From Acidobacteriota bacterium (GTDB lineage: Bacteria; Acidobacteriota; Polarisedimenticolia; J045), in contig JANNUT010000137.1 in NCBI GenBank assembly GCA_031395565.1, positions 11,252-75,251 of the forward strand: a DNA stretch of 64,000 bases, given 5' to 3'. Position numbers and translations under genes: made by a program. Positions 19,540 through 49,201 of the stretch are shown piece after piece. The notes beneath the pieces were generated by a model, which did not search any database, was not told the origin of the DNA, and worked only from the letters and a program-made list of their open reading frames with translations. How positions within the stretch are numbered: position 1 is the stretch's first letter; the number at the start of each line of letters is the position of its first letter.

Positions 19540-19559
19540 CGGTATTCCTCGTGAGAGAG

Positions 19560-31580: not shown

Positions 31581-32670
31581 CTCCTCGCTGGTTGCTCACC
31601 TCGCGTAGCCGGAACGACGACCCTGGCGTTATCGGGCTCGGACCTGGGGCTGCGTGGATGTCAAGGTGCGCCAAAGCACGTTCGATGGTTGCCTGCGATA
31701 CGGGGCCTGAGAACAGCCTGAGCACTCGACCGTTGGCATCGAGCAACAGCGTTGTTGGCAGTGGCAACGAAGCTTCTCCAAAGAAGCGTTGAACAAGCGG
31801 GAAGATCGATTCACCTGTCGCCCGTACGACCTCATATCTCGCTCCTCGCGCCTTCGCCCACAATTGCGCGGTCGCTTGGTCGTCGAGCGCAACACCGATT
31901 ACTCGGAGTTGCGGCGAGAACTTCGCGTGTAGTTCGTTGAGAGTCGCTACTTCCTTCGCGCATCCGGGACACCATGACGCCGAGAGCGCAACCAGTGTGG
32001 GAACTCCTGGTGAGGGGTGCCACGGTGTACCCGAGAGCGTCCACCCAGTCCAAGGCGTCGCACTGGTCGATATCGACTTCCCTCGAACCGTCCGTGAACC
32101 TCGTAGGCGGCGTGTGCTCAACCGGCCTTCGCCCTCGAGGATCTCCACGACAGCATTAGGTCCGATCTCGGTGAATCGCTCTGTCAGTCCGGAAGGCCAC
32201 CGAATTTTCAACTCATCGACCAGCTGTGCGCGCCCCAATCCGAAGTGGAGTGTTGCCTCGGATTGGCCCTGAAACCCTGATCCAGCGCTTCGCACACGCG
32301 TCTGTGTGATCGAGCCGGTACGAACCGAGACGATCGCACCGACGGCATCACGGTTGCTCTTCGTTCCGATCAACTTCACGCGCAGCGTTGGTACCTCTGA
32401 GCCGATCTCATTGTGGAAAACACTGATCTTGCGACGCGCCACACTGCGGACGACCAGGTCGAGCCCACCATCTTCATCGAGATCCAAGACCGCAACACCT
32501 CTGCCTTCCAAATCGACATCGATACCCATCGCATACCCAGTCTCAACGAACTGTCGTCCGCCCAAATTCAGGAACAAGCAGTTCCGTTCGTGGGCGTTGA
32601 ACGAATAGTAGCGAAACAAATCACGGCTGCTCAGCAGTTGCAGATCAGACGGTTTCAATCGTTCGATCAA
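31564..32670 (-). CDS. C-terminal part of a CRTAC1/ASPIC-UnbV family protein fused to a TlpA-like thioredoxin domain (downstream fragment of a frameshifted gene)
   Basis: UnbV/ASPIC block RDAVGAIVSVRTGSITQTRVRSAGSGFQGQSEATLHFGLG...IRWPSG, then LVALSASWCPGCAKEV (WCPGC ~31958-31980). The listed start is TTG. The frame is open upstream to the stop of 32752-34482 (LYWRQVLALSPNTGESF...). Its 3' end overlaps the PKS start by 17 nt. Confidence 0.75.
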   Translation of the reverse strand: MIERLKPSDLQLLSSRDLFRYYSFNAHERNCLFLNLGGRQFVETGYAMGIDVDLEGRGVAVLDLDEDGGLDLVVRSVARRKISVFHNEIGSEVPTLRVKLIGTKSNRDAVGAIVSVRTGSITQTRVRSAGSGFQGQSEATLHFGLGRAQLVDELKIRWPSGLTERFTEIGPNAVVEILEGEGRLSTRRLRGSRTVRGKSISTSATPWTGWTLSGTPWHPSPGVPTLVALSASWCPGCAKEVATLNELHAKFSPQLRVIGVALDDQATAQLWAKARGARYEVVRATGESIFPLVQRFFGEASLPLPTTLLLDANGRVLRLFSGPVSQATIERALAHLDIHAAPGPSPITPGSSFRLREVSNQRGGAVER

Positions 32671-34775: not shown

Positions 34776-35861
34776 ATGCAACGAAACAGCCAGCACCGGT
34801 CGCTCGCGAGCGGCGTGTTGATCGCAATCTGCGTTCTTCTCGGGGGGTTCATTTGGTCCCAAGAGCGCAGTGATCCCGCCGCGCCAAAGACACCACAAAC
34901 CCAGTTCGATCAGCCCGCGTTTCCCGCGGAGACCAAACCAGACCCCGAGGGGAACCGTCGACCTGGGCAACCAGGACACTATGAGCATCTTGAGTGGACA
35001 GGAGAGTACCCTTCGCTCGCCACGATCAACGACATGAAGGTCCTGCGCTCTTTTGCGCCGCCGAGTGGTTTTATCGGCAACATGGCCTATGACACCGTCA
35101 GTAATCGTCTCTGGCTGGTCTCGCTTGGCCCGCCCACGAATAGTACTGGCCAGAGCATGCTCTACGAACTCGACCCCACGACGGGTAGAGTTTTGCGGCA
35201 GGCGAGCCTGCCGTTGCGTGGTGATTTGGCTGAGCCGGTCTACCTGAATGGCCATCTTTACCAAGGTGCCTACCACGAGTCGAGACTGTACAAGATCAAT
35301 ACTGCAATCGGCGCGAATTTTGGCAAGATTGACGCGGTCATTAAGCTGCCGACGATTAACGATCTCAAACTTGTCAACGAGCGTCACCAATACCCGTTCA
35401 TCGAGTTTGGTGGCGTGACTGTCACTCCCGAAAACAAGCTGATGATTCATGCCGATGACGTCGGCGAGTACATAACTATTGATCCGGTGACAGGCAATCT
35501 GCTCAATCGAGTACGCACGATCAAGGCGATGGGAGGTATCGAAGGGACCAAGGACAAGCAGGGGCGATTTCTTGTCGTCGGCAATTCCGACCCGCGTGGC
35601 GGCTATTGTGCGCTCTCATACCCGCCGAGTGTTAGCCGCAGTCCGCGGCAGAAAGACATTAGCTGGGCCTTGACCGATGGACGCACGGGCGAGGTATTGG
35701 CATCCCGGCGCGAGCAGAATTCGAAAGCCTATGCGAGCACTCTCGCACTGCGGCGGCATGACGAGGTTCCAGGGACGCCGTATGGTCGGTTCACACTCTT
35801 CGCGCTGGGGGAAGACGGAATACTCGAAATCGAGTGGACTCCAGGGCGAGATGAGTCGTAG
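34776..35861 (+). CDS. Membrane-anchored/secreted beta-propeller, glutaminyl-cyclase-like (tentative), family Q copy 1
   Basis: ATG at 34776 with AGGAGG 7 nt upstream; TM segment GVLIAICVLLGGFIW. GNMAYDTVSNRLWLVSLGPPTNSTGQSMLYELDPTTGRVL... and C-terminal YGRFTLFALGEDGILEIEWTPG. Paralogue of 42106-43137. Confidence 0.55.
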   Translation: MQRNSQHRSLASGVLIAICVLLGGFIWSQERSDPAAPKTPQTQFDQPAFPAETKPDPEGNRRPGQPGHYEHLEWTGEYPSLATINDMKVLRSFAPPSGFIGNMAYDTVSNRLWLVSLGPPTNSTGQSMLYELDPTTGRVLRQASLPLRGDLAEPVYLNGHLYQGAYHESRLYKINTAIGANFGKIDAVIKLPTINDLKLVNERHQYPFIEFGGVTVTPENKLMIHADDVGEYITIDPVTGNLLNRVRTIKAMGGIEGTKDKQGRFLVVGNSDPRGGYCALSYPPSVSRSPRQKDISWALTDGRTGEVLASRREQNSKAYASTLALRRHDEVPGTPYGRFTLFALGEDGILEIEWTPGRDES

Positions 35862-37542
35862 GCCACATCGGACCTTTCTCAGTGTTGTGGAGGAATGGCT
35901 ACGAACCAACGCCTCACGTCGTGGCCTTGCGCTTGCGGCCACGCTTCTAATTGCCTCGTGGGCCGCATTCACAGAGAGTGGCTTGATTGGGCGTGAGATG
36001 GCGGTCACGCGTCACCTGCAGGATGGCGAAGAATACCGAATGCCGCTGTCGGCGCTGCTTGACCATGGGCAGCGATTATTCAGCGCCAAGTGGACCGTGC
36101 AAGACGGAGGTGGGCGGCCAGAAACCAATGGAATCGGCGAAGCTCTGACCGACCCCTCCCGCCCACTTCTATTCCCGCGTAACTTCAACCGAGTGTCTGG
36201 ACCAGATTCCAACGCTTGTGCGGCCTGTCACAACTCACCGCACAACTGGACTGGTGGCAATGGCGACTTCGTGGCGGTGACATTCGTCCAGGCACAACGC
36301 TTCGATGATGTCGACTTTGACGCCCAAAATGCCTTACCGTTGCGCGGGTCACGCGATGAACTTGGTGCAGCCGTGACACTGGCTTCGGCGGGTAACGCGC
36401 GGCGATCGATCGGAATGTTCGGTTCCGGATATGTCGAACTGCTCGCCCGACAAATGACGACCGAGCTCCAGCGGCAGCGTGACACACTCCAACCAGGTCA
36501 ATCGCGCGAGCTCATCGTTCGCGGTGTCTCATTCGGGCGCTTGAAACGGATTATCGACGGACGATGGGATGTGCACGAGGTCGAGGGGTTGCCGGCAGCG
36601 AGTACTGCCACCTTCGGATCCGAGGATCCGCCATCGCTGTTGATTCAGCCGTTCTCGCAAGCGGGCGCTTTTTCGTCGCTGCGACTATTCACCGACAATG
36701 CGCTCAATCACCACCATGGGATTCAGGCTTCGGAGCGGTTCGGGAAGGGTCGTGACCCGGATGGAGATGGGTTCGTCGATGAAGTTTCCAGAGCTGATGT
36801 CACCGCGCTCGTACTGTTCCAAGCGACTTTGCCTGTTCCTGGGCAGGTCATCCCTCATGATTCCGCGCACGAGAACGCGATCGCTCTCGGTGAGGCGCGT
36901 TTCAAGCTGGTCGGTTGCGTAGACTGTCACCGCCCATCCCTGGAACTCGATGAGGCCCGCGCTCTTTTCATCGAGCCCGGCCCTCACAACCCACGGCGCA
37001 CACTTCGTCGTGGAGAAGCCCCTCCTGTCGCCGTAGACCTAGCCGATCCTGCACTCCCTCTGCCACGGCTCCAGTCAAGTGGAGGTCGGCTGCGCGTACC
37101 GCTTTACTCTGATCTCAAGTTGCATGACATCACCAATGGCCCAGCCGACCCCAATCGTGAACCGATCGACATGCAGCAAGTCCAAGGAACAGCCGGTTTC
37201 TTCGGCGGAAATTCGCGATTTCTTACGCGGCCACTATGGGGGGTCGGGAATCAATCCCCGTATTTCCACCACGGGCGATTCACAACGCTTCGCGAGGCCA
37301 TCGAGGCGCACGCTGGTGAAGCGCAAACTACTATGAGCCGCTTTCGCGCGCTCCCGGCGAGTGAGCGGGACGCCGTGATCGAATTCCTCAAGTCACTCCA
37401 AGTTTTACCGGCAGGAGTGAAGACAACCGTAGTCGACGAGAACTATCAGCTTCGCAGCTGGGATCGTTCGGCGCTTGTATCGACAACTGACTGTTCGATC
37501 GCTCCAGCACACTGCGCAAAGCTGGAGAAGAGATCCGACTGA
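35851..37542 (+). CDS. DUF1111-type di-haem oxidoreductase (putative peroxidase)
   Basis: Two CxxCH sites: CAACH at 36217-36231 and CVDCH at 36916-36930. RPLWGVGNQSPYFHHGRFTTLREAIEAHAGEA matches the conserved C-terminal block of the DUF1111 family. I prefer the ATG at 35851, which overlaps the upstream stop by 11 nt and is followed by a signal/TM segment. Confidence 0.7.
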   Translation: MSRRPHRTFLSVVEEWLRTNASRRGLALAATLLIASWAAFTESGLIGREMAVTRHLQDGEEYRMPLSALLDHGQRLFSAKWTVQDGGGRPETNGIGEALTDPSRPLLFPRNFNRVSGPDSNACAACHNSPHNWTGGNGDFVAVTFVQAQRFDDVDFDAQNALPLRGSRDELGAAVTLASAGNARRSIGMFGSGYVELLARQMTTELQRQRDTLQPGQSRELIVRGVSFGRLKRIIDGRWDVHEVEGLPAASTATFGSEDPPSLLIQPFSQAGAFSSLRLFTDNALNHHHGIQASERFGKGRDPDGDGFVDEVSRADVTALVLFQATLPVPGQVIPHDSAHENAIALGEARFKLVGCVDCHRPSLELDEARALFIEPGPHNPRRTLRRGEAPPVAVDLADPALPLPRLQSSGGRLRVPLYSDLKLHDITNGPADPNREPIDMQQVQGTAGFFGGNSRFLTRPLWGVGNQSPYFHHGRFTTLREAIEAHAGEAQTTMSRFRALPASERDAVIEFLKSLQVLPAGVKTTVVDENYQLRSWDRSALVSTTDCSIAPAHCAKLEKRSD

Positions 37543-37660
37543 GGAGTTTGGTAAAACCCAAGCACTGGTGAGGATCGCATCGCGGCAACTCGTCCGATGC
37601 GTGACCCCAGAACAGGCAGGCACGCCGCGTACGCAGCGTTGAACCCCGGAGGTACTGTCG

Positions 37661-38533
37661 ATGAAGACCCACTCAAAGCTCACGGCACATTCTCTCGTAA
37701 CAATTGTGCTCGTGTTGTTCACGCTACCGTTCGACCAGGCAGGCACGCCGCTCGGGACACCGCCGAACTCTGCGGGGCTCACGATGGTTGCGGAGTTCAA
37801 GACACCCGGTCTGGAGTGTGAACTCTCTGGGATTTACCCACACCCGCTGCGCACCAATCAATATTACATCGCAACCGATCGCCACCCAGCCTGTCGTCAG
37901 GGCCAGCGGACTTTGCTTCAGGAATCGCAGCGTGGCAAGTTGTTGCTCGTCGACGGACTGAGCGGTCGCATCTTGAAGATGATCGCGTTGGTTGACGGCG
38001 ACTATGGCGACATCGCTGGCAACGATGAACGACTGTTCATCTCCAGCCTCGAGCCAGCCGAGATCCTCGAGGTCGATCTCGCGACGGATAAGCTTGTTCG
38101 TCGCATCCCAGTCGCGGGTCCCGCTGGGGGACTCGAGTTTGACCGGGAGCGTGGTGCGCTAATCGCACAGTTGTTCGCTCGAATGCCCCAGTTGGCCGTG
38201 ATCGACCCTAAGACAGGCGACACCACTGAATCTCTTTGGTCGGATGAGAGCGCTATGGGTCTGGCGAAGGTCGGGAAAGACCTGCTGTGCACATGGGTCT
38301 CGAGCTTCGATGAGTTCGCGAAGAGCGAGCTCCGATTGCTCGACAACCAGACCGGCAAAGTGATCGGGCGCACGCCGTTGAGTGGTGGAGTGCATACGGC
38401 GATGGCACCGGTCTCTCGCCCTGGGGTCTCTCCCGGCTTCATGGTGTTGGTGGCAACTGACCGGGGCACCGGCGCAAGTGTCGTGCGCTCCTACGCTTAC
38501 GATGGTTCACAGGTGCAGTGGAAGCGGGATTGA
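37661..38533 (+). CDS. Secreted beta-propeller-like protein (glutaminyl-cyclase/YncE-like, tentative)
   Basis: 290-aa ORF, GGAGG RBS 8 nt upstream, signal peptide. Repeated strand-turn units (LLLVDGLSGRIL, LFISSLEPAEILEVDLATDKLV, GGLEFDRERGALIAQL, LAVIDPKTGD). Confidence 0.5.
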   Translation: MKTHSKLTAHSLVTIVLVLFTLPFDQAGTPLGTPPNSAGLTMVAEFKTPGLECELSGIYPHPLRTNQYYIATDRHPACRQGQRTLLQESQRGKLLLVDGLSGRILKMIALVDGDYGDIAGNDERLFISSLEPAEILEVDLATDKLVRRIPVAGPAGGLEFDRERGALIAQLFARMPQLAVIDPKTGDTTESLWSDESAMGLAKVGKDLLCTWVSSFDEFAKSELRLLDNQTGKVIGRTPLSGGVHTAMAPVSRPGVSPGFMVLVATDRGTGASVVRSYAYDGSQVQWKRD

Positions 38534-38560
38534 TCTCGGACGGCGTATCACGAGGCAACG

Positions 38561-41500
38561 ATGGCAGGGGCGATTAGCGCGTGGAGTCGAAATCGCAAAG
38601 CACGAGGTACGGCCGACACTCGCGGTTTCTCGCGTCTGGCCGTAGCGGGGTTCCTCGTGCTCGTTGCGATCAGCGCGGCTTCTCGTCCTGGTGGAGCGCC
38701 GACGGTGGCGATTGTGCAAGTGCCAGGATCGGCGGGAGGGGCACTCACCTCCGCCGGCGAACGAATCATCCGGCAGGCTGTGCAAGATGACGTTCGGATC
38801 GTGATCGTCGCTGTTACCTCGGTTGCAACTTCACCGGCAGTGCCCGCTTCGGCGGGGAGCGTTTCAAGTCAGAGTTGGGGATCGCTGGCGCGTGAGTTGG
38901 GGGTCTGGATCGTCGCGCCCCCTGAGACTACGAGCCAGCGTTCAGCCGTCAGCGTGGTTGCTATTAACGGGTATGGCGACCGGATCGAGTCTCAGCAGAA
39001 ACGCCACTCCAGCGGAACGGTTTCGAGTGGTGCGCTACGTGGCGATGTCTGGTCCCCACTGGCAGTCTTCGAGGAGGCAGGAACGCGCATCGGATTGACT
39101 TGGGGGTCAGATCTGAGCGTTGAGGTGCCCGCACTCGCCGCGCGGGGCGCGCAAGTGATACTCGTGTCAGGATCGTGGCCGGCTGCCGAGTGGCCGACAG
39201 CGACGATCGAGTTGCGCGAGTTGAGTCGTCGTCATGCCGTTCAGCTCGTTGTCGCACAGCCAGCGGCCGCTGGGTCTCCCAACGACCCATCCGGCCGATA
39301 TGATGTCGATGGTCTCTATCACAACGGAGTTGTCGCAGATGCTGCGCGTTGGGTAGTCATCGCAACTGCTGCCCCGCGGCGGTCGGGTCCGTCGGTCCTG
39401 GGCCTCCCGGCGATCCCGGTGCCCGCCAATCAAGCAGCCTCGGCGGAACTCGTCGAACTCGGACGCAAGCTGTTCGTCGACAAGTCGTTGTCGAGTGACG
39501 GAAAGACATCGTGCGCTAGCTGCCACGATCCCGAACAAGGCTTCACGTCGCATGTGCCGCTCGCCACTGGCGTCAACGGTTACCGAACTAAGCGCAATGT
39601 GCCCACTTTGCTGAATGTCGCGTTCCGATCAGCACTGTTTTGGGACGGGTATGCCAGTTCGTTAGAGAACCAATCGAAGTACCCGCTCAGCCATCCGCAA
39701 GAGATGGATGCGCCGTACCTTGATCAGGCTGCAGCGAAGTTGACTGCCAGCGAGACCTACCGTGAGTCGTTTCGCGCAGCCTTCGGAGGTGCATCTCCAT
39801 CAGCTGAACGCGCATCGATCGCCCTGGCCGCCTTCCAGCGCACACTTATCGCTGCCGAAAGCCGTGCCGATCGCTACCTCTATGCTGGTGATAGTGGTGC
39901 GTTGACCGATTCGGAGCGCCGCGGCTTAGACTTGTTCCGCGGAAAAGCAAATTGTACGACATGTCACACCGTCGGTCATAAGTACGCACTGTTCAGTGAT
40001 CAGGCCTTCCATGACACAGGAGTTGGTTTCGAGCGAGAGACCGGTTCACCGAGAGATGGCGGCCTCGGTTGGCTAACCGACTCTCGACGGCTAGGCCAGT
40101 TTCTCACCCCAACGTTGCGAAACGTGTCCGACACCGCACCGTATATGCATGATGGTTCGCTCGCGACGCTCGAGGACGTCGTCAACTTCTACGCAGCGGG
40201 CGGAATCCCGCATTCTGGTCTCGACCCCGGCATTACCGCGCTCGACCTCGACCAACAGGAAAGGATCGACCTAGTCACCTTCTTGCATTCGCTGAGCAGC
40301 GAGCAGCGTTTCGATACGGAGGCCCGTCCGGTCCTTAATTCCTGGCCCCGCGAAAAGCAGATCGGTGAGCGCACCGCGATCGCTGCGGTGAGGGTTACAC
40401 CGAGGCAACTGGACGTATTAGGCAATCGGGAGCGCAATGCCCGAGCCATCGGAGAGGCGGTTCAGCGAGGTGCTGAAGTAGTCGTTCTACCTGAGTACGC
40501 CGAGACCGGCAGACTGGACGGGAGTTCGGTCGAAATGGACCGACTGCTGGAGATAGCCGATGAACAGCAGAGCCGCGGTGCGTCGACCTATTCCCAATTG
40601 GCACGTCGGTACAGCGTTTGGATCTCCATCCCGCTGCTCGAGCGTGCGCCGGGTCAAGTCGACAATGTGCGGCTCGCCATATCTTTGTTCGACCCAACTG
40701 GACGCCGTCAGCTCTCGCAACCCAAACTGACGACGCGTCGTGAGCGTGGTGATGGACCCCTCACTGTCGGTGGGCCTCGCGAACTGCGAGCCGTCAACAC
40801 TCCGCTGGGTTGGCTCGCTCCGCTAGCTGGCGACGACCTGCAGGTGGGAGTCAGCCGTCTTGCAGAGTTGGGAGCCCAGGTGGTGCTCGTGTCGGCGTCC
40901 TGGGAAAAGTCTGACGCTGTCGACTGGGCGCAGCTTGCAATCGAACTCTCGCGGCGTCATCGGCTCTCCCTCGCAATCAGCGACCTTCCGACCGACGAGT
41001 CACGAACAGCGCTTTTCGCCACCACGGCCAGTGAACACGGTGAAGTTTCGGGGGTCGAAGCAGGAACTCGTCAGCCTATCGTCACGATTCGCATCGCGCG
41101 GACTGATGCGGCGCGGGTAGTCAAGCAACCACTGGGATTACCGAAGATCCCGGCACCGATGGCCTCTCCCGTGACACAACAGGCCGTCGATCTAGGGCGG
41201 ACACTCTTCAACGATCGCGGGTTATCCCGAGCCAGTTCTGTCTCCTGCGCGGATTGCCACATCCCCGAGAAAGGCTTTACAGACGGCCTTAGGGTGCCTC
41301 AAGGTTTTGCCGGACGGTTAGGGGCGCGCAACACGCCGACGCTGCTCAACGCAGTGTACCGTCCGTTCGAGTTTTGGGATGGGCACGAATCGTCGCTCGA
41401 GGAGCAAGTGCTGCACGCGGTTCAGCACTTTGCAGAGATGGATAGTTCTGCTGAACGAGTCCTGGAATATGTACGAGGCGTACCGACATATCGGCTAGCG

Positions 41501-42109
41501 TTCGAACAACTCAACGGCGACGACGAGATCGAATTCTCCGATATCGCGCGTGTGATCGCAGCCTTCGAGCGCACGCTCGTCTCCGGCAACAGTCCATTCG
41601 ATCGCTGGTACTACGGGCGCGATGAATCGTCGCTGAGCCGCGAGGCTCAGCGGGGCTACCAACTGTTCATTGGCGAGGCGCGCTGCTCGACGTGTCACCA
41701 CATTGGGACGCAAGACGCACTCTTCACCGACAACCGTTTCCACAACACCGGCATTGGCTACCACATGCGATTCGACTATCTGGGCTACAACGGCAACGGA
41801 CTCGGGGCGAACACGACGGAACGTCGAGTCTTCAGTGGGGAGTATCTGACTCCGACATTGAGAAACGTGGCGCTTACCGGGCCGTACATGCACGACGGAA
41901 GCCTGGCCACTCTCGAGGATGTAGTCGAGTTCTATGTGCGTGGTGGAACGCCAAACCCCACACTCGATTCGTCAATCAAGCCACTGTCCCGGCTTCTAGC
42001 GCGAGATAAACGCGATCTGGTGGCGTTCTTGCAGTCCCTAACCAGCAGCGACCCACTTCCGACCGGCGGTCGACCGTCCGGCCGCATGGCTCGTACGAGC
42101 CCACAATGA
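38561..42109 (+). CDS. 1182-aa membrane-anchored protein with internally duplicated architecture: (nitrilase/CN-hydrolase-like, apparently inactive) + (di-haem cytochrome c peroxidase/MauG-like), twice
   Basis: Four CxxCH sites: CASCH 39512-39526, CTTCH 39953-39967, CADCH 41246-41260, CSTCH 41684-41698. Two CCP blocks (RNVPTLLNVAFRSALFWDGYASSLENQ / RNTPTLLNAVYRPFEFWDGHESSLEEQ; PTLRNV..TAPYMHDGSLATLEDVV twice). Each is preceded by a CN-hydrolase-like region. The second keeps AEVVVLPEYAETG but has LAPLAGDDL where the catalytic Cys is expected. The first has IGLTWGSDL and no PE motif. Confidence 0.8.
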   Translation: MAGAISAWSRNRKARGTADTRGFSRLAVAGFLVLVAISAASRPGGAPTVAIVQVPGSAGGALTSAGERIIRQAVQDDVRIVIVAVTSVATSPAVPASAGSVSSQSWGSLARELGVWIVAPPETTSQRSAVSVVAINGYGDRIESQQKRHSSGTVSSGALRGDVWSPLAVFEEAGTRIGLTWGSDLSVEVPALAARGAQVILVSGSWPAAEWPTATIELRELSRRHAVQLVVAQPAAAGSPNDPSGRYDVDGLYHNGVVADAARWVVIATAAPRRSGPSVLGLPAIPVPANQAASAELVELGRKLFVDKSLSSDGKTSCASCHDPEQGFTSHVPLATGVNGYRTKRNVPTLLNVAFRSALFWDGYASSLENQSKYPLSHPQEMDAPYLDQAAAKLTASETYRESFRAAFGGASPSAERASIALAAFQRTLIAAESRADRYLYAGDSGALTDSERRGLDLFRGKANCTTCHTVGHKYALFSDQAFHDTGVGFERETGSPRDGGLGWLTDSRRLGQFLTPTLRNVSDTAPYMHDGSLATLEDVVNFYAAGGIPHSGLDPGITALDLDQQERIDLVTFLHSLSSEQRFDTEARPVLNSWPREKQIGERTAIAAVRVTPRQLDVLGNRERNARAIGEAVQRGAEVVVLPEYAETGRLDGSSVEMDRLLEIADEQQSRGASTYSQLARRYSVWISIPLLERAPGQVDNVRLAISLFDPTGRRQLSQPKLTTRRERGDGPLTVGGPRELRAVNTPLGWLAPLAGDDLQVGVSRLAELGAQVVLVSASWEKSDAVDWAQLAIELSRRHRLSLAISDLPTDESRTALFATTASEHGEVSGVEAGTRQPIVTIRIARTDAARVVKQPLGLPKIPAPMASPVTQQAVDLGRTLFNDRGLSRASSVSCADCHIPEKGFTDGLRVPQGFAGRLGARNTPTLLNAVYRPFEFWDGHESSLEEQVLHAVQHFAEMDSSAERVLEYVRGVPTYRLAFEQLNGDDEIEFSDIARVIAAFERTLVSGNSPFDRWYYGRDESSLSREAQRGYQLFIGEARCSTCHHIGTQDALFTDNRFHNTGIGYHMRFDYLGYNGNGLGANTTERRVFSGEYLTPTLRNVALTGPYMHDGSLATLEDVVEFYVRGGTPNPTLDSSIKPLSRLLARDKRDLVAFLQSLTSSDPLPTGGRPSGRMARTSPQ

Positions 42110-43137
42110 CTCTCCACACTGTCGTCGCTGCCATCGATCGTCGTGCGTTGTTGGCCACGCTGCTCGTCATGCTATTGCCAATCGCGTTACCACCGGTGCG
42201 CGCCGAAGGGGAATTCCAACTCAAGCGTGTGGTCACGCTCCCTGAAGGCTTCCGCGGCAACGTCGCGTTTGATCGCGAGAGTGCCCGCCTGTTCCTCATC
42301 TCACATGGCCCTCCTGCCAACAGCAAGGGTCCGAGTACGCTGTACGAGCTCGACCGTCAGACAGGCCGTGCCATACGCAGACGAGTTTTGCCCTTCTTGG
42401 GCGAGTTACCAGGGACAGTTGTCATCGGTGGAGTACTGTTCGTTGGCGTACCATTTGAATCGAAGGTCTACAAAGTCGAGCTTACTGAAACAGCGGAATT
42501 CGGAGCGATTCTCGGCACGCTGCGAATTCCAGATTTGACCGAGCTCGGTCCGACCGACAAAGACGATGTCTTTCGGTTCCCGTTTCTCGGTTTCCAACAG
42601 CTGGCGGCAGCCGAGGGCGGCGATCTGCTCGTCTATTCCGATGCACTAGGAAGCCTGCTGTCCTTGAGCATCAAGGATGGATCACTGGTCCGGCGGATCG
42701 ATGCGGCCAAAGGCCTGATGGGCCTAGCCCACGCGTCGGAGAACGGGTCGGCACCGCTGCTTATCGCTAACAGTAATCCGAGCATCGTTCAGTACGAGCG
42801 CGAGGCCCGCCGGTTTCAGTACCGCGCCGACCATGGCTCTGCGGCGCAGATCCGGTACGGTGCGAAGGAGGTGCTGTGGATGCTGCTTGACGCGTCGTCA
42901 GGGATTGTATTGGCGAGTCATGACGATCCGGACTCTCGCATCGATGCAGGCACCATCGCATGGACCGGACATGCCACACGGGAAGGCTCTCGCTACGGCA
43001 AGTTGAGTTTCTATGCAGTTGGACAAGAGGGATTGTTCGAGGTCGAGTGGACACCAGGAGGATCGACGGCGGGGGCGCCCGCAGCGGGCGAACCGTCGCC
43101 AGCCGCTGTCACGGATGAGTTGGCCCACTGTCACTGA
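42106..43137 (+). CDS. Secreted beta-propeller, glutaminyl-cyclase-like (tentative), family Q copy 2
   Basis: ATGA start/stop overlap with the upstream gene. Signal peptide. GNVAFDRESARLFLISHGPPANSKGPSTLYELDRQTGRAI and YGKLSFYAVGQEGLFEVEWTPG align with 34776-35861. Confidence 0.55.
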   Translation: MTLHTVVAAIDRRALLATLLVMLLPIALPPVRAEGEFQLKRVVTLPEGFRGNVAFDRESARLFLISHGPPANSKGPSTLYELDRQTGRAIRRRVLPFLGELPGTVVIGGVLFVGVPFESKVYKVELTETAEFGAILGTLRIPDLTELGPTDKDDVFRFPFLGFQQLAAAEGGDLLVYSDALGSLLSLSIKDGSLVRRIDAAKGLMGLAHASENGSAPLLIANSNPSIVQYEREARRFQYRADHGSAAQIRYGAKEVLWMLLDASSGIVLASHDDPDSRIDAGTIAWTGHATREGSRYGKLSFYAVGQEGLFEVEWTPGGSTAGAPAAGEPSPAAVTDELAHCH

Positions 43138-43195
43138 GGCGTCCATCGTCACGGCGTTCGCCGGGGTCGTAAGGCGCCAGTTCGAGGGAGGTTGA

Positions 43196-44389
43196 ATGCA
43201 TTCAGCGATTGCAATCCGAAGCAACGAGTCCGTGCCCATGATCGCAAACGGTGTCGCCTTTGGCGACCCGACCACGAGGTTCAGCGAAAGTATCCACCAT
43301 GTGTCCACTAGCCTAGAACAACGTCTAACCGAGGAGTTGATCCGCGACGGGCGCACCTCATTTGACGCCGTCACGCGGGAGTTCGCGCTCTATCAGTTAC
43401 TGGCTCGTGAAGGCTCGCGCTGCATCGACACGCTCGAGGCCGCTGCCCACGAGGATCCGAACACCGACGTGCGCATCAACGTGCTCTGGGCGCTGGAGTG
43501 GCTTGACAGCGCACGGTGCCGCGAGATCGGGCTGTCCTTGCTCGACGATCCGGATCATCGCGTGCGCGAGTGGGCTCGCGTCTTCGCCTGGGAGATGGGC
43601 TGGAGCCCTAAGGACTTTCGCTACAAACGCGAGTTCAAGCACCTGCAAGGACGCACGTTCGACCAGACGATCTATCTACACATCATGTGCAACCTCTATA
43701 TCCGAATGTCTGAGGACAACAAGACGTGGGGTCACGTGCTGCTGAGCCCTCAGACCCTAGCGCGTGTCTACGGTCAGGCGCTCGCCTGCCCGATTTTTAA
43801 GACCCGCGAGAAAGAGATTGTGATCTCCAAGACCCTCTCCGGTTTGCACGCCGACGACTCCGATCATTATGAAGCGTTCCTGTTCCGTGGCTTTACCGAG
43901 CGCACAGGGACCGATAGCGGCAATTTCTACTTCGAGACGCAGACGGAGCGGCCATTCTTCCTTTCCGGTCGCGCCAACGATGTCTCTGAGGGTTACGTAG
44001 AAAAAATGATGGTGCCGTTCGCACGTGAAGGGCAGTGGTTCTTGAATGATCATGTGACGATCGAGGATGTTCACCCCATCGAATATGTACGTGGCCTGTT
44101 CCAGGGTTGGGCATATGTCAACCTGGATAGGATCCAGCGAACAGGCGGGGAGTTCTTGTTCCCCGGCAACTCTGTGCTCTCGACCCTGCATCATCCGATC
44201 GTCGGCGAGAAGACCAACGCGTTCCTCATTGGTCGTTTCAAAGGCAAGGTGCTCGATTGGGATGGGGACGGGGTACTGGATTTGAACTACCTACCGTCGT
44301 ATGCGACTGCGAAAGGCGAGGTGGATTCCGACCTTGACGGGGTTCCCGATCAGCCTGGGCTAACAGTTAGTCTCAACCCGGCACGCTGA
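43196..44389 (+). CDS. Hypothetical protein with HEAT-like repeats (N-terminal) and Asp-rich Ca-binding-like tail
   Basis: 397-aa ORF with HEDPNTDVRINVLWALEWLDSARCREIGLSLLDDPDHRVREWA (HEAT/PBS-lyase-like) and a C-terminal DWDGDGVLDLN...DSDLDGVPD. No signal peptide seen and no family recognised. Confidence 0.45.
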   Translation: MHSAIAIRSNESVPMIANGVAFGDPTTRFSESIHHVSTSLEQRLTEELIRDGRTSFDAVTREFALYQLLAREGSRCIDTLEAAAHEDPNTDVRINVLWALEWLDSARCREIGLSLLDDPDHRVREWARVFAWEMGWSPKDFRYKREFKHLQGRTFDQTIYLHIMCNLYIRMSEDNKTWGHVLLSPQTLARVYGQALACPIFKTREKEIVISKTLSGLHADDSDHYEAFLFRGFTERTGTDSGNFYFETQTERPFFLSGRANDVSEGYVEKMMVPFAREGQWFLNDHVTIEDVHPIEYVRGLFQGWAYVNLDRIQRTGGEFLFPGNSVLSTLHHPIVGEKTNAFLIGRFKGKVLDWDGDGVLDLNYLPSYATAKGEVDSDLDGVPDQPGLTVSLNPAR

Positions 44390-44413
44390 AGTTTATCGTT
44401 GTGTATTGCGGGC

Positions 44414-44442
44414 GGTGCCGAGGGCGGATGCGCCTCGGCACC
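44414..44442 (+). terminator. GC-rich perfect 10-bp hairpin downstream of 43196-44389 (possible intrinsic terminator or attenuator; no U-tract)
   Basis: GGTGCCGAGG (44414-44423), gcggatgcg loop, CCTCGGCACC (44433-44442). Located in the 82-bp gap before the SRPBCC gene. Confidence 0.4.
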
Positions 44443-44471
44443 TAGCCTAGGCTTCGACGAGGGGAAGAAGA

Positions 44472-45227
44472 ATGTTCCATGTCGTCCGGCAGCGGGTTGT
44501 TCGCTGTAGCACTGAACACGCGTGGGCATGTCTTACCGAACCCGCGAAGCTGACGAGTTGGTTCGGCGACACCGACTCGATCTCTGTTGGAAGTACCACC
44601 CGCTTCGACTTTGGTGATGGTGACTACTTTATCGCCGAGGTTCTTGAACTAAACCGTCCGACGGACATTCACATGTCTTGGCGCTTTATGGGCATCGGCC
44701 AGACCTTTACAGTTCGTGTCCTGCTCTCGCCCCATTCAGAGGGCACTGAAGTCACGGTGATCGACCACGGCTCGCTCACAGTCGAGGAGGTCGACAGCCT
44801 GCGCGAAGGCTGGGACGACTTTCTCATGCGCCTGTCCCAATTCGTCGACAACGGCGGCTGGGTTCGATATGAATGGAGCCAGACTATTGGTATCAGTGTG
44901 ATCCTCGGCTCTCGAGCCCGTCGGCCGTTTCCGACCGAGATGGTGGACAGTGCTTGGCTCACGAAACACTTTCCAGATGCCGAGTTTGAGATCGAACGCC
45001 CTGATGAAAACATACTCACGCTACGTTTCGGTGAGCGCTCCTGGGCCGGAAAGCAAACGGAAGCTCTTCTTGAGTCGCGCGCACTCGCGCCTGATCGCCT
45101 CTACCTCGGCGTCGTGCACAAGGGCTGGGAAAACCTACCTGCCGATTCGTGTCTTCGCGAGAGAAGGCGGTACGCCGGACTTTGGCGTGAGGTCATGGCG
45201 GCATTCGAAAATGCATACGGGGAGTAA
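44472..45227 (+). CDS. SRPBCC/AHSA1 (START-like) domain protein, two domains
   Basis: 251-aa ORF. VVRCSTEHAWACLTEPAKLTSWFGD is a typical AHSA1/SRPBCC N-terminus, and a second similar half starts about WLTKHFPDAEFEIER. Confidence 0.6.
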   Translation: MFHVVRQRVVRCSTEHAWACLTEPAKLTSWFGDTDSISVGSTTRFDFGDGDYFIAEVLELNRPTDIHMSWRFMGIGQTFTVRVLLSPHSEGTEVTVIDHGSLTVEEVDSLREGWDDFLMRLSQFVDNGGWVRYEWSQTIGISVILGSRARRPFPTEMVDSAWLTKHFPDAEFEIERPDENILTLRFGERSWAGKQTEALLESRALAPDRLYLGVVHKGWENLPADSCLRERRRYAGLWREVMAAFENAYGE

Positions 45228-45259
45228 AATCTGCGCCGCGAGTCGGGTTTAAGACGACA

Positions 45260-46468
45260 ATGGGCTCGTTGCAACTCTTGTTTCATCACCGAGCGATCCA
45301 GTATTTCTGGGGGGCGGGATTTATCTCGTCGCTCGGATCCCAGATCAGTCGAATCGGCCTGCTACTATTTCTATTCAATGAACTACGTTCGGTACCGCAC
45401 CTGGTCCTGCTCGTCGCGGTCGAGACAGTTCCGGGCCTTCTGTTCATTAACGTTGCTGGGACGCTGGTCGACCGTTTTGACAAGCGAAGGATCATGATCA
45501 TAGCGGACCTGGTACGCGCCCTGCTGATGATCGTGGTTCTAATACGGCCCGACCCGCTGATTATTTACGCGATGGCCGGGCTGCATTCAGTTGCCGCGGC
45601 GTTCTTCCTGCCGGCGCGAAGCGCCGTGCTTCCTAGCCTAGTTGGGCGTCGCCAACTCGCGGCCGCCAACGGCCTGGAACAAGGAACCTCCAACCTGATA
45701 ATGATTATTGGGCCGATCGTCGGCGTTCAGTTATTCCTCGCTGGAGGCATCCGCACCTTGCTCGTGATCGACTCCGTGTCCTACGTACTCGGCGCCGCGC
45801 TCATGGGATTCGTATCTCTGAGACCCGGGCGCGCTATGTCAAATCAAAGCATCTTTGCCACGCGTCAGCCGTTGCTTCACAGCGGCTGGAGAGTGCTGTG
45901 CCAGCAGCCGGTCGCGCTGCAAATCACCTTACTCTACCTCGTCACTCAGGTATGCGTCGGTGTGTGGATCCCGCTAGCGCCTTTCTTCGTCCGCGATTTC
46001 CTACAGGGGTCCGATAGAGTGCTAGGAATCCAGATGGGAGTCTTCGGCCTAGGGGGACTAATCGGCGCGCTGCTTGCGCCAACCTTGTTGGAGCGGATCG
46101 GTCCAGGCGCCATTCTAGTAGTCGGGTTATTGGGTGAAGCAACGATCATGACGGTGTACTCGTTGGTGCCGCAGGCTGGAGTTTCGATCGCGATTATTCT
46201 GCTTTGGGGGGCGATCGTCTCGTTGATCGCCGTTCCGTTCTACTCGATGATGCAGAAATTGATCGACGAAGGCCATCTAGGACGTGTTTTTTCGTTGGTT
46301 CGGCAAGGAGAGAGCGCGGCACTTCTGGTGTCGATGGGCGTCGCGATGACCCTGAACCAACTCATGAGCGTCTCACAGGTCTTCCTGGTCGCTGGGCTAT
46401 TGTACCTATCTGTCGTGTTGGTGAGCACGTCAACCCATCGCGGTCGGCAGCTGTGGGCGTACCGATGA
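45260..46468 (+). CDS. MFS transporter (EntS/MFS_3-like)
   Basis: 402-aa ORF with about 12 hydrophobic helices. FWGAGFISSLGSQISRIGL and LVDRFDKRRIMIIADL are typical of the enterobactin-exporter-like MFS subgroup. Confidence 0.7.
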   Translation: MGSLQLLFHHRAIQYFWGAGFISSLGSQISRIGLLLFLFNELRSVPHLVLLVAVETVPGLLFINVAGTLVDRFDKRRIMIIADLVRALLMIVVLIRPDPLIIYAMAGLHSVAAAFFLPARSAVLPSLVGRRQLAAANGLEQGTSNLIMIIGPIVGVQLFLAGGIRTLLVIDSVSYVLGAALMGFVSLRPGRAMSNQSIFATRQPLLHSGWRVLCQQPVALQITLLYLVTQVCVGVWIPLAPFFVRDFLQGSDRVLGIQMGVFGLGGLIGALLAPTLLERIGPGAILVVGLLGEATIMTVYSLVPQAGVSIAIILLWGAIVSLIAVPFYSMMQKLIDEGHLGRVFSLVRQGESAALLVSMGVAMTLNQLMSVSQVFLVAGLLYLSVVLVSTSTHRGRQLWAYR

Positions 46469-48282
46469 AACCCTCTCGGTTCCTGCCCCTCGCCGCACTG
46501 ATCTCGACGTGTTTGGCTTGTGCTCCGGAGCTCAAGCAAGAACTGACACTGGCGGTCGATGAGATGGGCGGCGCTGACGCGGCGATTAGCGCCGATGGCA
46601 AGCGGGTAATCACCTCCTCTCTGCGAAGCGGCAATTGGGAGCTCTGGATTTATGAGCTGGCCTCCGGATCCTGGACGCAGTTGACGTTCGATCCGGCAGA
46701 GGATATCGAGGGCAAGTTCTCGCCCGATGGTGAACGTGTCGTCTTCACTTCGACTCGTACCGGCAACAAGGATCTGTGGCTGCTTGACGTCGCCAAGAAC
46801 CGTTTAACACAACTCACCGATGACCCTGAGGATGATGAGTACCCGGCGTGGTCCGCGGACGGTGAGTCGATCGTGTTCACCGGTGGGGCCTGGAAGCAGC
46901 GGGATTTTTTCTTGATCGCTGCCGACGGCAGTGCACGTCGGCGTGTGTCTCGTAAGAGCGGGTGGGCGGGCGCGTGTGCGTTCGAGCAAAGCGGTGAGTC
47001 GATCGTATGTCATCGCTACGACAACGGTTCCGGTGACATCGTGCGCATCCACGTGGACGATGGTCGCGAGGAGTTGTTGACCTCTGACTCTGCTTGGGAC
47101 TACAAGCCAGCAGTAGCGCCCGACGGGTCGATCGCTTTTTCTCGCAGTACTGAAGGCTCTTCGGCGATCTGGATGAGAACCCTCGATGGCAGTGTGAGTC
47201 CGCTGACGGTGACCACACAAGAAGATCGTTGGCCAATGTGGAGCGACGACGGCAAGAAACTGTTCTACCACCGGCTGATTGATCGCGGACTCGGAGTCTA
47301 TCGCCTTGATCTCGTGACGGGCAAGCGAGAAAAACTCATCGACGCCATTGAATCGCCGCAGCAGGCGGATCTCGATCCGACAGGAAATCGACTCGCGTAC
47401 TGTGCCGACGTTGGCGAGCGGTGGGTGTTGCGAGTCAAGGATCTGACGAGCGGAACGACCACAGAGATACTGTCGGAGTTTGCCAGTGCATGCTACCCAC
47501 GGTGGTCTCCAGATGGGGACGAGCTAGCGTTCGTCGCGCGCCGCGAGGCTTCCGCTCGCTGGGAAATCGGTGTGCTCGACACCCGTTCTGGGGAACAACG
47601 CTTTCTCACCGAGGAGTATCCGCTCCTACGCGGCCTCGATGGGCCGATCGACTGGACGATCGATGGCAGGCAAATCCTCTTCCAGTCGGACACGCTCCCG
47701 TTTGCGGCACGACTCTATGCCGTCGATACGCGATCGCGCACTCTAACGCCGATCACCCCCGATGGTGATTTCGATGAGGCACCACGTATCTCGCCGGATG
47801 GTAAACACGTGTTGTTCATGTCGACACGCGGCGGGGGATGGACTTGGTCGCTCTATCAGGTCGGCCTCAGTGACGGTGCGCTCTCCCCGCTGACTGCGGC
47901 CGACTACGAGGAGAAGAACTACCCCACACGAGTGGCGGACGGTAGCCTCTACTTTACCTGCGCAGATGCACGAGGCCGGCCGATGCTTGTGCACCAGGGG
48001 ACGCACGGCAAGCGCGAGTTTCTTGTTGCTGCAGGCGACGGGGTGCGGTGGCCGTCAATCACGCGCGACGGGCGTTTCGCCTTGTTCACGTTGATGGAGC
48101 ACCGTGTAGAATTCCGCCTGAAAACACAGGTCCAGCAGAACCCAACATCCCCGTCGACGCTCGGTCATCCGAAGGTCGCTTACGACGCGCCAGCAACAGA
48201 GTCCGCCGCGGGACACGAAAGGCCGGTCGCGCCAGGTGTGACAGCACGCCAGCCAAGTCCGGTGGACCATGAGCACCGCTGA
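46465..48282 (+). CDS. TolB-like PD40/WD40 beta-propeller lipoprotein
   Basis: ATG at 46465 overlaps the MFS stop (ATGA). Lipobox LISTCLAC. About 8 PD40-type units (FSPDGERVVFTSTRTGNKDLWLLD, WSADGESIVF, VAPDGSIAFSR, WSPDGDELAFVAR, ISPDGKHVLFMSTRGG...). The 46204 start in the ORF track is an in-frame extension inside the MFS gene. Confidence 0.75.
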   Translation: MKPSRFLPLAALISTCLACAPELKQELTLAVDEMGGADAAISADGKRVITSSLRSGNWELWIYELASGSWTQLTFDPAEDIEGKFSPDGERVVFTSTRTGNKDLWLLDVAKNRLTQLTDDPEDDEYPAWSADGESIVFTGGAWKQRDFFLIAADGSARRRVSRKSGWAGACAFEQSGESIVCHRYDNGSGDIVRIHVDDGREELLTSDSAWDYKPAVAPDGSIAFSRSTEGSSAIWMRTLDGSVSPLTVTTQEDRWPMWSDDGKKLFYHRLIDRGLGVYRLDLVTGKREKLIDAIESPQQADLDPTGNRLAYCADVGERWVLRVKDLTSGTTTEILSEFASACYPRWSPDGDELAFVARREASARWEIGVLDTRSGEQRFLTEEYPLLRGLDGPIDWTIDGRQILFQSDTLPFAARLYAVDTRSRTLTPITPDGDFDEAPRISPDGKHVLFMSTRGGGWTWSLYQVGLSDGALSPLTAADYEEKNYPTRVADGSLYFTCADARGRPMLVHQGTHGKREFLVAAGDGVRWPSITRDGRFALFTLMEHRVEFRLKTQVQQNPTSPSTLGHPKVAYDAPATESAAGHERPVAPGVTARQPSPVDHEHR

Positions 48283-49201
48283 CACATGTAAGACGCCGCC
48301 CGGCGGGCGGCACCGACAGCCGACGCAGCCAACGACACGCCGAGAACTCATGATGAGGGTGCTCTCGAGTTGGTCGATAGTGATCGGTGTCACCGGCGTA
48401 CTTCTGTCGCTCTGGATACTAGGCACGTCGTGGCACCCAGTTGCGTGGCGTTGGGAACAGGACGTTATGCCTGGGCCTTGGGACAACGTTTCTGGACTCT
48501 CTTTTGATGGTGAGCGGCTATGGATCACGATCGAGGGGGAACACCGAATACGGTACGTCGATCCGGCCACAGGCACGACGCTCCGTACGATCCCATTCCC
48601 GGCAGAGGCGACGGGCGGAAGTGCCTGGGACGGGAAGTGGTTGTGGCAGCTCGCTTGGATGGAGCGGCGGATCTACCAAATTGACCCGGCAGACGGGAAG
48701 ATTCTAGCTACGTTCCCGTCTCCGGGTGAAGGAATGTGCAGCGGCACGGCGTTCGATGGTCGATATCTGTGGGTCGCCAACTGGGTTGAGTCGCGCGTGT
48801 ACTGCATTGACCAGCAGGATGGCGGCAGAGTGATCCGTTACCTGCGCGGTGACAAGGAGACCGCGGGCATTGCCTGGGACGGCACGTCACTCTGGGTGGG
48901 CGTCCTAGTCGGTACCGAGAGCCACGACGAGGCGCCTCCGTTCACAGGGTTCGTCCAGGAACTAGATATCGTTAACGGCGAGGCTGCACGAGTGGTGCCG
49001 GTCCACGGCGTCGGACCGGGCTGTACCGACTGGACGCCGGGCTCGCGTCGATCGAGTCGGATGTGGTGGTATGACCACTTCAACAAGCGGATCGTGGTGA
49101 TCCGATTCCGTACAGAAGGTGTGGGAACGCGACGCGCGGGGGCGCTCTTGCTCTTCGCGACAAGCGGATTGGTGATTCTCGCGAGGCGGCGATCGAACTG
49201 A
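48269..49201 (+). CDS. Membrane-anchored beta-propeller-like protein (glutaminyl-cyclase-like repeats, tentative)
   Basis: Repeats GLSFDGERLWITIEG..IRYVDPATG, GSAWDGKWLWQLAW..RIYQIDPADG, GTAFDGRYLWVANW..RVYCIDQQDG, GIAWDGTSLWVG. TM segment WSIVIGVTGVLLSLWILG and a C-terminal hydrophobic tail. Alternative start at 48350. Confidence 0.55.
   Translation: MSTADTCKTPPGGRHRQPTQPTTRRELMMRVLSSWSIVIGVTGVLLSLWILGTSWHPVAWRWEQDVMPGPWDNVSGLSFDGERLWITIEGEHRIRYVDPATGTTLRTIPFPAEATGGSAWDGKWLWQLAWMERRIYQIDPADGKILATFPSPGEGMCSGTAFDGRYLWVANWVESRVYCIDQQDGGRVIRYLRGDKETAGIAWDGTSLWVGVLVGTESHDEAPPFTGFVQELDIVNGEAARVVPVHGVGPGCTDWTPGSRRSSRMWWYDHFNKRIVVIRFRTEGVGTRRAGALLLFATSGLVILARRRSN

Follow-up and report, generated by a model that had tools for sequence, protein, structure and literature searches.

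A tandem nitrilase-fold/MauG-like di-haem protein and its candidate beta-propeller partners in a polyketide-type context in Acidobacteriota

The 64,000-nt stretch of DNA analysed here, which comes from an uncultured soil member of the Acidobacteriota and is referred to as the window, carries ten + strand genes at 34776-49201, labelled g1-g10 in order, among them g4, whose product joins nitrilase-like domains to MauG-like di-haem domains and is encoded between small exported beta-propellers. A preliminary description had listed ten same-strand genes in this region, and all ten open reading frames (ORFs) were found on the + strand as it gave them (Table 1). The coupling overlaps it proposed were confirmed for g1/g2 (11 nt, 35851/35861), g4/g5 (ATGA, 42106-42109) and g8/g9 (ATGA, 46465-46468), but the overlap of g9 with g10 (48269/48282) is possibly not real, since it hinges on a doubtful g10 start at 48269: in L002, one of the related loci denoted here by L numbers, the relative is called from the equivalent of the ATG at 48350/48353, just ahead of the transmembrane segment. 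The hairpin reported at 44414-44442 is present, with the stem GGTGCCGAGG/CCTCGGCACC, in a g6-g7 spacer with a folding energy of -35.9 kcal/mol (z = -2.45), and L002, the relative at 66% identity, has an identical stem around another loop (15853-15880). Promoter-like and terminator-like sites in the cluster region did not rise above the level of shuffled sequence. Nearly every product had been described as extracytoplasmic, which is true of seven exported or anchored proteins and one transporter but not of g6 and g7, which are cytoplasmic and show neither a signal peptide nor a transmembrane segment when their N-termini are read by eye.

Table 1. Features of the ten-gene cluster and of the neighbouring DNA in the window. 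Residue numbers refer to the g4 protein.
Feature	Coordinates	Strand	Remarks
g1, exported type-A beta-propeller, 361 aa	34776..35861	+	g5 paralogue; no Pfam/NCBIfam match
g2, divergent DHOR/DUF1111 di-haem protein	35851..37542	+	2 CxxCH; lineage-specific accessory
g3, exported type-B beta-propeller, 290 aa	37661..38533	+	candidate partner of haem unit 1
g4, exported, two tandem units, 1182 aa	38561..42109	+	per unit, a nitrilase-fold domain without Cys, then a MauG-like di-haem domain
g4 residues 44-269, nitrilase-like domain 1	38690..39367	+	without Cys and, in this lineage, without catalytic Glu
g4 residues 280-585, di-haem unit 1	39398..40315	+	CASCH 318, CTTCH 465, W361, Q371, E381, Y544
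g4 residues 603-865, nitrilase-like domain 2	40367..41155	+	Glu645 and Lys722 kept; Gly757 at inferred nucleophile position
g4 residues 866-1165, di-haem unit 2	41156..42055	+	CADCH 896, CSTCH 1042, W939, Q949, E959, Y1125
g5, exported type-A beta-propeller, 343 aa	42106..43137	+	coupled to g4; candidate partner of haem unit 2
g6, cytoplasmic, N-terminal HEAT repeats plus ~250-aa C-terminal domain of no assigned family	43196..44389	+	most conserved gene of the locus
Stem-loop, GC-rich	44414..44442	+	g6-g7 spacer; without T-tract
g7, cytoplasmic SRPBCC/AHSA1 protein	44472..45227	+	Pfam
g8, MFS_3/MFS_1 transporter, weakly EntS-like	45260..46468	+	Pfam, NCBIfam
g9, exported PD40/TolB-like propeller protein, 605 aa	46465..48282	+	Pfam, NCBIfam
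g10, membrane-anchored type-B propeller	48269..49201	+	start probably 48350/48353; Glu_cyclase_2 marginal
FG-GAP repeat protein, divergent from g1	32752..34482	-	kept beside g1 in L001, L002 and L009; recurs in L016
UnbV_ASPIC domain fused to DsbE/TlpA-like thioredoxin	31564..32670	-	divergent from g1; kept in L001, L002 and L009
Polyketide synthase (PKS), single-module type I (KS-AT-DH-KR-ACP)	25338..31580	-	overlaps UnbV-thioredoxin gene by 17 nt
ORF of 272 aa with HxD...H pattern	19533..20351	+	no Pfam match; homologues in L013 (E = 8e-48) and L079
S-adenosylmethionine methyltransferase	18688..19668	-	homologues adjoin g3, g4 or g6 in L004, L013, L015 and 10 g6 loci
ABC1/UbiB-type atypical kinase	7904..9172	+	homologues in L013, L015 and 14 g6 loci

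The haem protein g4 had been described as a 1182-aa CCP fusion with four CxxCH motifs; the four motifs are there (residues 318, 465, 896 and 1042), and instead of one CCP and one hydrolase domain the protein has a nitrilase-like domain followed by a di-haem domain, twice over. Pfam returns CCP_MauG twice (332.8 bits, 2 stretches) together with CN_hydrolase, and the presence of two CxxCH per unit alongside a significant CCP_MauG match places g4 in the bCCP/MauG superfamily (PF03150). Read from this domain anatomy, g4 is a tandem duplication of one didomain unit.

Both haem units resemble MauG and MbnH rather than canonical peroxidases, in agreement with the preliminary description, which disfavoured a simple peroxide-detoxification gene. 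When aligned with a reference MauG taken from a complete mauFBEDA-amicyanin-mauJG operon on a Methylobacterium plasmid, unit 1 is 40% and unit 2 41-42% identical, and in both an 'FY' aligns with the 'HY' of the reference (HY/FY..GG motif). The best match of unit 1 in the PDB is 6E1C (157 bits), which we take to be MbnH, and the next-nearest relatives of the g4 haem domain are SCO1/SenC fusions. MauG, unit 1 and unit 2 have in common the axial Tyr, the inter-haem Trp (W361 and W939 in g4) and the distal Gln/Glu, each of which is invariant in 10/10 tandem proteins. Residues Y544 and Y1125 occupy the position of the Met ligand segment in the canonical peroxidases of Shewanella and Nitrosomonas, so that g4 has Tyr in place of the Met of His/Met-ligated cytochrome c peroxidases, and by alignment both units carry the sixth-ligand Tyr of the MauG type. 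Tyr-His ligation is a hallmark of MauG and BthA that sets them apart from peroxidases (PMC6405878). Membership in two named families was rejected. The MauG-proper model (TIGR03791) gives 412 bits summed over the two units against a cut-off of 443.85, and no MADH subunit families were found by Pfam among the ten cluster genes; the NCBIfam MbnH cut-off is passed only when the two g4 units are summed (433.6 bits), and there is no MbnP partner.

The nitrilase-like domains accompanying the haem units retain the fold of their superfamily while appearing to have lost its chemistry. An AlphaFold2 (AF2) model of domain 2 (pLDDT 86) matched the nitrilase superfamily in Foldseek at TMq 0.75-0.80 (Nit2, amidases, cyanide dihydratase), and on this model the domain adopts the alpha-beta-beta-alpha sandwich. 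In a comparison of the domain profile with the PDB, its Glu and Lys correspond to E42 and K113 of 3IVZ; as the HMMER alignment ends ahead of Cys146 of 3IVZ, the nucleophile position was located by our own spacing count (K+33 to K+35), and it falls on an invariant Gly within an 'SGDD' motif. Domain 1 of g4 reads 'VIVAVTS' in place of 'VVLPEL', and no invariant Cys was found in the nitrilase domain of any tandem or single-unit member aligned. Because no homologue has a Cys at the nucleophile position, the CN_hydrolase domains of g4 are, judged from these alignments, catalytically dead pseudo-enzymes, and an active nitrilase or amidase was rejected, the nucleophile Cys being missing in all members.

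Four of the remaining products (g1, g3, g5 and g10) are small propellers that the preliminary description called glutaminyl-cyclase-like, a likeness that appears to lie in the fold and not in the family. The AF2 model of g5 (pLDDT 79) finds its best fold match in the 5-bladed glutaminyl cyclase 2IWA/3MBR (TMt 0.67-0.71, 12-15% identity), and its structural neighbours include plant and bacterial glutaminyl cyclase and peptidyl-hydroxyglycine lyase; 'QC-like' is accordingly a statement on the modelled fold, not on the family. None of g1, g3 and g5 has a significant Pfam match, none of the four has an NCBIfam match, and g10 scores marginally against Glu_cyclase_2 (PF05096; 24.1 bits, cut-off 22.3). 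By alignment g1 and g5 are paralogues (type A), and g3 and g10 (type B) are distant kin of each other and of type A (phmmer E ~1e-6 to 1e-8). The propellers carry no CxxCH motif. Two g1 motifs, RPGQPGHxxHxEW(F)xG, which lies N-terminal to the propeller, and the loop motif DPRGGYC, occur in 12/12 distinct orthologues found, and RPGQPGHxxHxEW and DPRGGYC may form a candidate metal or cross-link site. The C-terminus of g10 consists of a hydrophobic helix followed by an Arg-rich RRRSN and resembles a sorting or anchor signal; this tail is present in L001 and L002 and absent from L006.

The genes of the cluster are co-conserved. A search of 5.8 billion proteins yielded only ten full-length relatives of g4, all of them metagenomic, and every one shares the gene order at 36-66% identity. 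Their contigs carry g3-g4-g5 followed by combinations of g1, HEAT, SRPBCC, MFS, PD40 and g10 genes, down to 36-40% identity, and g3 lies directly upstream of g4 in every locus with flanking sequence. One of the two findings that the preliminary description had named as refuting it, a lack of co-conservation in related genomes, was thus not obtained. An exhaustive profile search returned ~9 tandem representatives and at least 20 single-unit proteins (540-630 aa) of the same Cys-less architecture. A word-indexed homologue search with g5 alone gave 2 matches, and a scan with the type-A propeller profile of one genome per species (185,579 species) gave 4 loci, all with other cluster members and all from Acidobacteriota (Thermoanaerobaculia, Holophagales and one complete metagenome-assembled chromosome). 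All organism-labelled loci are likewise from Acidobacteriota.

The pairing of unit and propeller is clearest where the architecture varies. In entry P0069 a g3-type propeller (44% identity, E = 2e-58) is fused to one haem unit, and L014 holds a minimal pair in which a g3-type gene is followed by one haem unit. The haem units are split into separate genes in L015, where a g3-type gene stands immediately upstream of one unit, the stop codon of a unit-2-like gene overlaps the start of a type-A propeller, and downstream of a third unit comes a g1-type propeller; the arrangement in the window, g3 then unit 1-unit 2 then g5, fits the same rule. Dedicated propellers are linked to haem units by fusion, adjacency and coupling. 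This fusion, one-to-one adjacency and translational coupling speak for an enzyme-partner relation between haem units and propellers, and to that extent the enzyme-plus-partner assembly suggested earlier is supported; that the propellers are also the substrates is a more conditional proposition, to which we return below. L015 also contains, between two MauG-like unit/propeller pairs, a PAP2/vanadium-chloroperoxidase-like gene (10640-12175).

The second haem protein, g2, was correctly described as a DUF1111-type di-haem protein with 2 CxxCH (residues 123 and 356 when numbering begins at the 35851 start), as Pfam DHOR and a motif count both indicate. It scores 51.3 bits against DHOR (PF06537; cut-off 22) with only model positions 408-499 of 499 aligned, so that its gathering score and two CxxCH make it a divergent member of DHOR/DUF1111; a comparison with solved structures yielded no useful relative. 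In the window g1 is coupled to g2 rather than to a haem unit. The standing of g2 as a core member of the system was not sustained: its gene type occurs only in L001/L002/L003/L007/L016-18, which form the clade closest to the window, and is missing in L004-6, L011-13 and L015. An imelysin/EfeO iron-uptake locus, the ordinary explanation that the preliminary description had held against its own proposal, was rejected: no imelysin (Peptidase_M75), EfeO or HTTM family was found with Pfam and NCBIfam in the ten-gene cluster or in those flanking genes that were scanned.

The genes g6-g9 follow a different distribution, and the single homogeneous periplasmic system first envisaged gives way to two joined modules, one of haem proteins and propellers (g1-g5, possibly g10) and a wider one of g6-g9. 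Pfam and NCBIfam agree with the earlier PD40, SRPBCC and MFS labels for g9, g7 and g8, and the HEAT-like label of g6 (HEAT_2 match) applies to its N-terminal part only. The C-terminal domain of g6 has invariant His and Cys residues and a DxDGD tail, and has no PDB relative, g6 having returned only HEAT repeats among solved structures. In loci where the g4 units share 35-40% identity g6 keeps 61-62%, and its homologues were located at L013 14754-15989, at L015 3918-5108 and in L016-L095, with 194 relatives in JGI metagenomes. Among 80 g6 loci retrieved, many of them short, the gene is accompanied by g7 (SRPBCC) in 31, by g8 (MFS) in 16, by g9 (PD40) and by a homologue of the ABC1 kinase at 7904-9172 in 14 each, by a homologue of the methyltransferase at 18688-19668 in 10, by g3 and g4 in 8 and by a PKS in 7; in the 31 with g7, that gene follows g6. 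The other neighbours of g6 are mostly SnoaL-like, AraC, VOC/glyoxalase, 4HBT thioesterase, methyltransferase, P450, DUF899 and DyP genes. The transporter g8 gives 73 bits against the EntS model (cut-off 324). A TolB identity for g9 was rejected (211.8 bits against 343; no tol/pal neighbours).

Beyond the ten genes, the locus reaches well past 34776-49201 and looks like a specialised-metabolite pathway. A PKS also adjoins the cluster in L002/L003 and on the P0004 contig. In the window, a 1023-aa fusion of a tryptophanase/tyrosine-phenol-lyase-like pyridoxal-phosphate domain and an acyl-CoA/AMP ligase (20348-23419, - strand), a possible starter-unit enzyme, is encoded between the methyltransferase and PKS genes. 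The 272-aa ORF at 19533-20351 overlaps the end of the opposite-strand methyltransferase gene and resembles the 2-oxoglutarate/Asp-hydroxylase type by eye only. Two paralogous + strand ORFs at 10736-11746 and 11713-12549 have no Pfam match and share the motifs 'GSW.L..RT.QG' and 'LTY.SC...VE.Y.KV', with weak homologues inside the related clusters L006, L012 and L013. A further paralogous + strand pair at 12546-13985 and 13822-14907, of no assigned family, shares 'SGLY.ATDPV..R.FG..GDEW.L', and its first member has TPR repeats. A divergent pair encodes a protein with a CHAT domain (3102-5795, -) and a caspase-like (Peptidase_C14) protein that also has DUF4384 (5828-7768, +). At 58706-62053 (+) lies a carboxylic-acid-reductase-like gene (AMP-binding and NAD_binding_4) with PAP2 and SDR neighbours at 62026-62769 (-) and 62605-63888 (+), and a homologous reductase occurs near g6 in L076 and L090.

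We favour, tentatively and at somewhat less than even confidence, the reading of the cluster as a MauG-like/propeller module for peroxide-driven oxidation in the periplasm, joined to a polyketide-type pathway of Acidobacteriota. Its starting points are the synteny, the domain anatomy, the loss of Cys, the MauG-type residues, the fusion and the pairing set out above. In the mechanism we propose, unit 1 would pair with the upstream type-B propeller g3 and unit 2 with the downstream, coupled type-A propeller g5, while the dead nitrilase domain might serve as a docking or dimerisation platform. H2O2 would bind at the five-coordinate haem of each unit and give rise to a MauG-type high-valent state shared with the His/Tyr-ligated haem, and residues of the docked propeller would then be oxidised via long-range electron transfer, yielding a protein-derived cofactor or metal site. 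Candidate sites might be the 'LWSDE' and 'CTW' motifs of g3, W258 and W315 of g5, and the HxxHxEW and GGYC motifs of g1. Cytoplasmic synthesis of the metabolite would fall to the PKS, the methyltransferase, the SRPBCC protein and g6, and its export to the MFS transporter, after which the matured propellers and the PD40 protein might process it. Complex formation, the use of peroxide, the modification of propellers and the metabolite link are what we infer beyond those starting points. Propeller oxidation has precedents: the characterised MauG-like enzymes MauG and MbnH act on a co-encoded protein, in the pairs MauG-preMADH and MbnH-MbnP, and SCO1 and mauG-like genes are found clustered with mtoX (PMC11951088, PMC5739008).

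Several observations weigh against this reading. The axial Tyr is sometimes Phe or Leu across the wider single-unit family. The adjacency of a PKS is limited to some lineages, and since g6-g9 often occur without any MauG-like gene within reach, the two modules may be only loosely coupled. The metabolite itself may be the oxidation target, as P450 and DyP genes in sister loci would suggest, and RoxA is a CCP-superfamily enzyme that acts directly on a small or polymeric substrate. A second such enzyme, the oleate-diol synthase of P. aeruginosa, likewise acts on its small substrate directly (PMC4496055). These points lead to the main alternative, somewhat less likely in our view, in which the haem units oxidise, couple or polymerise an exported, probably phenolic or lipidic, polyketide directly, as peroxidases or dioxygenases, and the propellers and dead nitrilase domains only bind, orient or convert the substrate in a dirigent- or cyclase-like manner. 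Such a role would suit a locus set among PKS, thioesterase, SnoaL, SRPBCC and methyltransferase genes and an MFS exporter, with sister loci that hold DyP, P450 and the vanadium-chloroperoxidase-like gene; di-haem CCP relatives that oxygenate fatty acids exist (PMC4496055), the neighbours of the g5 model are small-molecule or peptide enzymes, and the nitrilase fold of unit 2 retains a Glu and a Lys and could bind an amide or acid. Set against this, both units lie nearest the protein-modifying MauG/MbnH branch and keep the Tyr ligand, strict one-to-one pairing with propeller fusion is typical of pairs of enzyme and protein substrate, and a P450 and a MauG-like unit occur together in L013, so that the two are not simple substitutes. 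A bolder form of propeller oxidation, which we consider distinctly less likely still, would have the pseudo-nitrilase-MauG units act as maturases, equipping propellers of the glutaminyl-cyclase fold with a protein-derived cofactor or metal site of a new kind, with a candidate Cys-Tyr or Trp-derived centre at the invariant DPRGGYC and HxxHxEW of g1; were it true, the propellers would be periplasmic oxidoreductases of a class not known before, with an exported Acidobacteriota polyketide as their substrate.

The same g1 motif enters an explanation based on metal handling, in which a metallophore would be the product of the pathway and the MauG-like units would generate a metal site in a propeller, which would then bind or release copper or iron in the periplasm. 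MbnH is known to make the kynurenine-containing copper site of MbnP, and the best solved relative, 6E1C, is presumably MbnH. SCO1/SenC fusions, the next-nearest relatives of the haem domain, point the same way, SCO1/SenC and MauG domains, sometimes fused, being clustered with the copper enzyme gene mtoX (PMC5739008), and so do the invariant His-x-x-His-x-Glu-Trp motif of g1, the weakly EntS-like g8, the presence of DUF1111 proteins in imelysin iron loci (PMC3143127) and a TonB-dependent receptor beside the cluster in L016. TonB receptors, however, are not regularly found beside the cluster, most lineages lack DUF1111, the EntS match lies far under its cut-off (73 against 324 bits), and Pfam and NCBIfam detect no MbnP, imelysin, EfeO, SCO or copper-chaperone family, which makes this account improbable to our minds. 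Ordinary periplasmic peroxide detoxification or electron transfer, with the other genes as unrelated neighbours, would draw on the peroxidases among the CCP_MauG and DHOR families and on the intact distal Gln/Glu peroxide pocket, but the replacement of the canonical Met ligand by Tyr, a gene order kept down to 36% identity, the existence of a propeller fusion, and a tandem duplication and pseudo-enzyme domains that it would not lead one to expect leave it very little probability. Scarcely credible at all is a hydrazine-synthase-like complex of CCP-like di-haem and propeller subunits for nitrogen chemistry: the composition is superficially similar and there are weak matches to the gamma subunit (91 bits) and to PDB 5C2V chain C, yet 91 bits compare with a cut-off of 625, the propellers here are without CxxCH, the host belongs to the Acidobacteriota, and the window showed no other anammox genes. 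Hydrazine synthase itself contains four haems, and an active-site haem has been proposed for its alpha subunit in addition to the one on gamma (PMC12607021).

Long-range oxidation of the MauG type has been characterised in few systems, namely MauG, MbnH and the orphan BthA, and the locus adds a new, well-delimited family with candidate partners, comprising two propeller types, a natural fusion, and both split and tandem versions. It also presents a nitrilase fold that, to judge from the lost nucleophile, was recruited as a non-catalytic module of a haem enzyme. The genes for g6 and the SRPBCC, MFS, PD40 and ABC1 kinase proteins form a widespread, unstudied module of soil Acidobacteriota, found repeatedly beside PKS, thioesterase and SnoaL genes, and the locus as a whole holds promise for the discovery of new protein-derived cofactors or periplasmic oxidative chemistry.

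Among described systems, the resemblance to MauG and pre-MADH lies in a di-haem CCP-superfamily enzyme, 40-42% identical to the g4 units, that is encoded beside its protein partner, and the MADH heavy subunit is itself a beta-propeller. The differences are that genes for MauA, MauB, MauD, MauE and amicyanin are missing here, that the g4 units carry a dead nitrilase-fold domain and are tandemly duplicated, and that the partners are small glutaminyl-cyclase-fold propellers in a polyketide-type context. MbnH/MbnP, of methanobactin and related operons, offers a MauG-like enzyme that modifies a co-encoded periplasmic partner, with natural-product genes and an exporter adjoining; here there is no MbnP-like protein and no sign of copper, and propellers take the place of the partner. 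The mtoX-SCO1/SenC-mauG operons of methanethiol oxidase share a MauG-like gene that accompanies a periplasmic enzyme, and fused accessory domains, but the accessory domain in our locus is a pseudo-nitrilase instead of SCO1, and an SBP56 homologue is lacking. With imelysin/DUF1111 iron loci the cluster has in common a DHOR/DUF1111 di-haem protein, though without imelysin, EfeO or HTTM, with a DHOR match covering the C-terminal fifth of the model, and with the gene missing from most versions of the cluster. In pyoverdine maturation (PvdM/N/O/P/Q), cytoplasmic assembly is followed by export and then by periplasmic oxidative tailoring by enzymes of the same locus, a scheme of assembly, export and periplasmic tailoring that our proposal resembles, although entirely other enzyme families are involved. 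The preliminary description knew of no described system with this composition, and the literature searched likewise contains no description of a nitrilase-MauG fusion, of its propeller partners or of the locus. A MauG-like enzyme with a co-encoded partner is of an already known kind; the architecture, the fold of the partner, the tandem, split and fused variants and the polyketide-type context are new.

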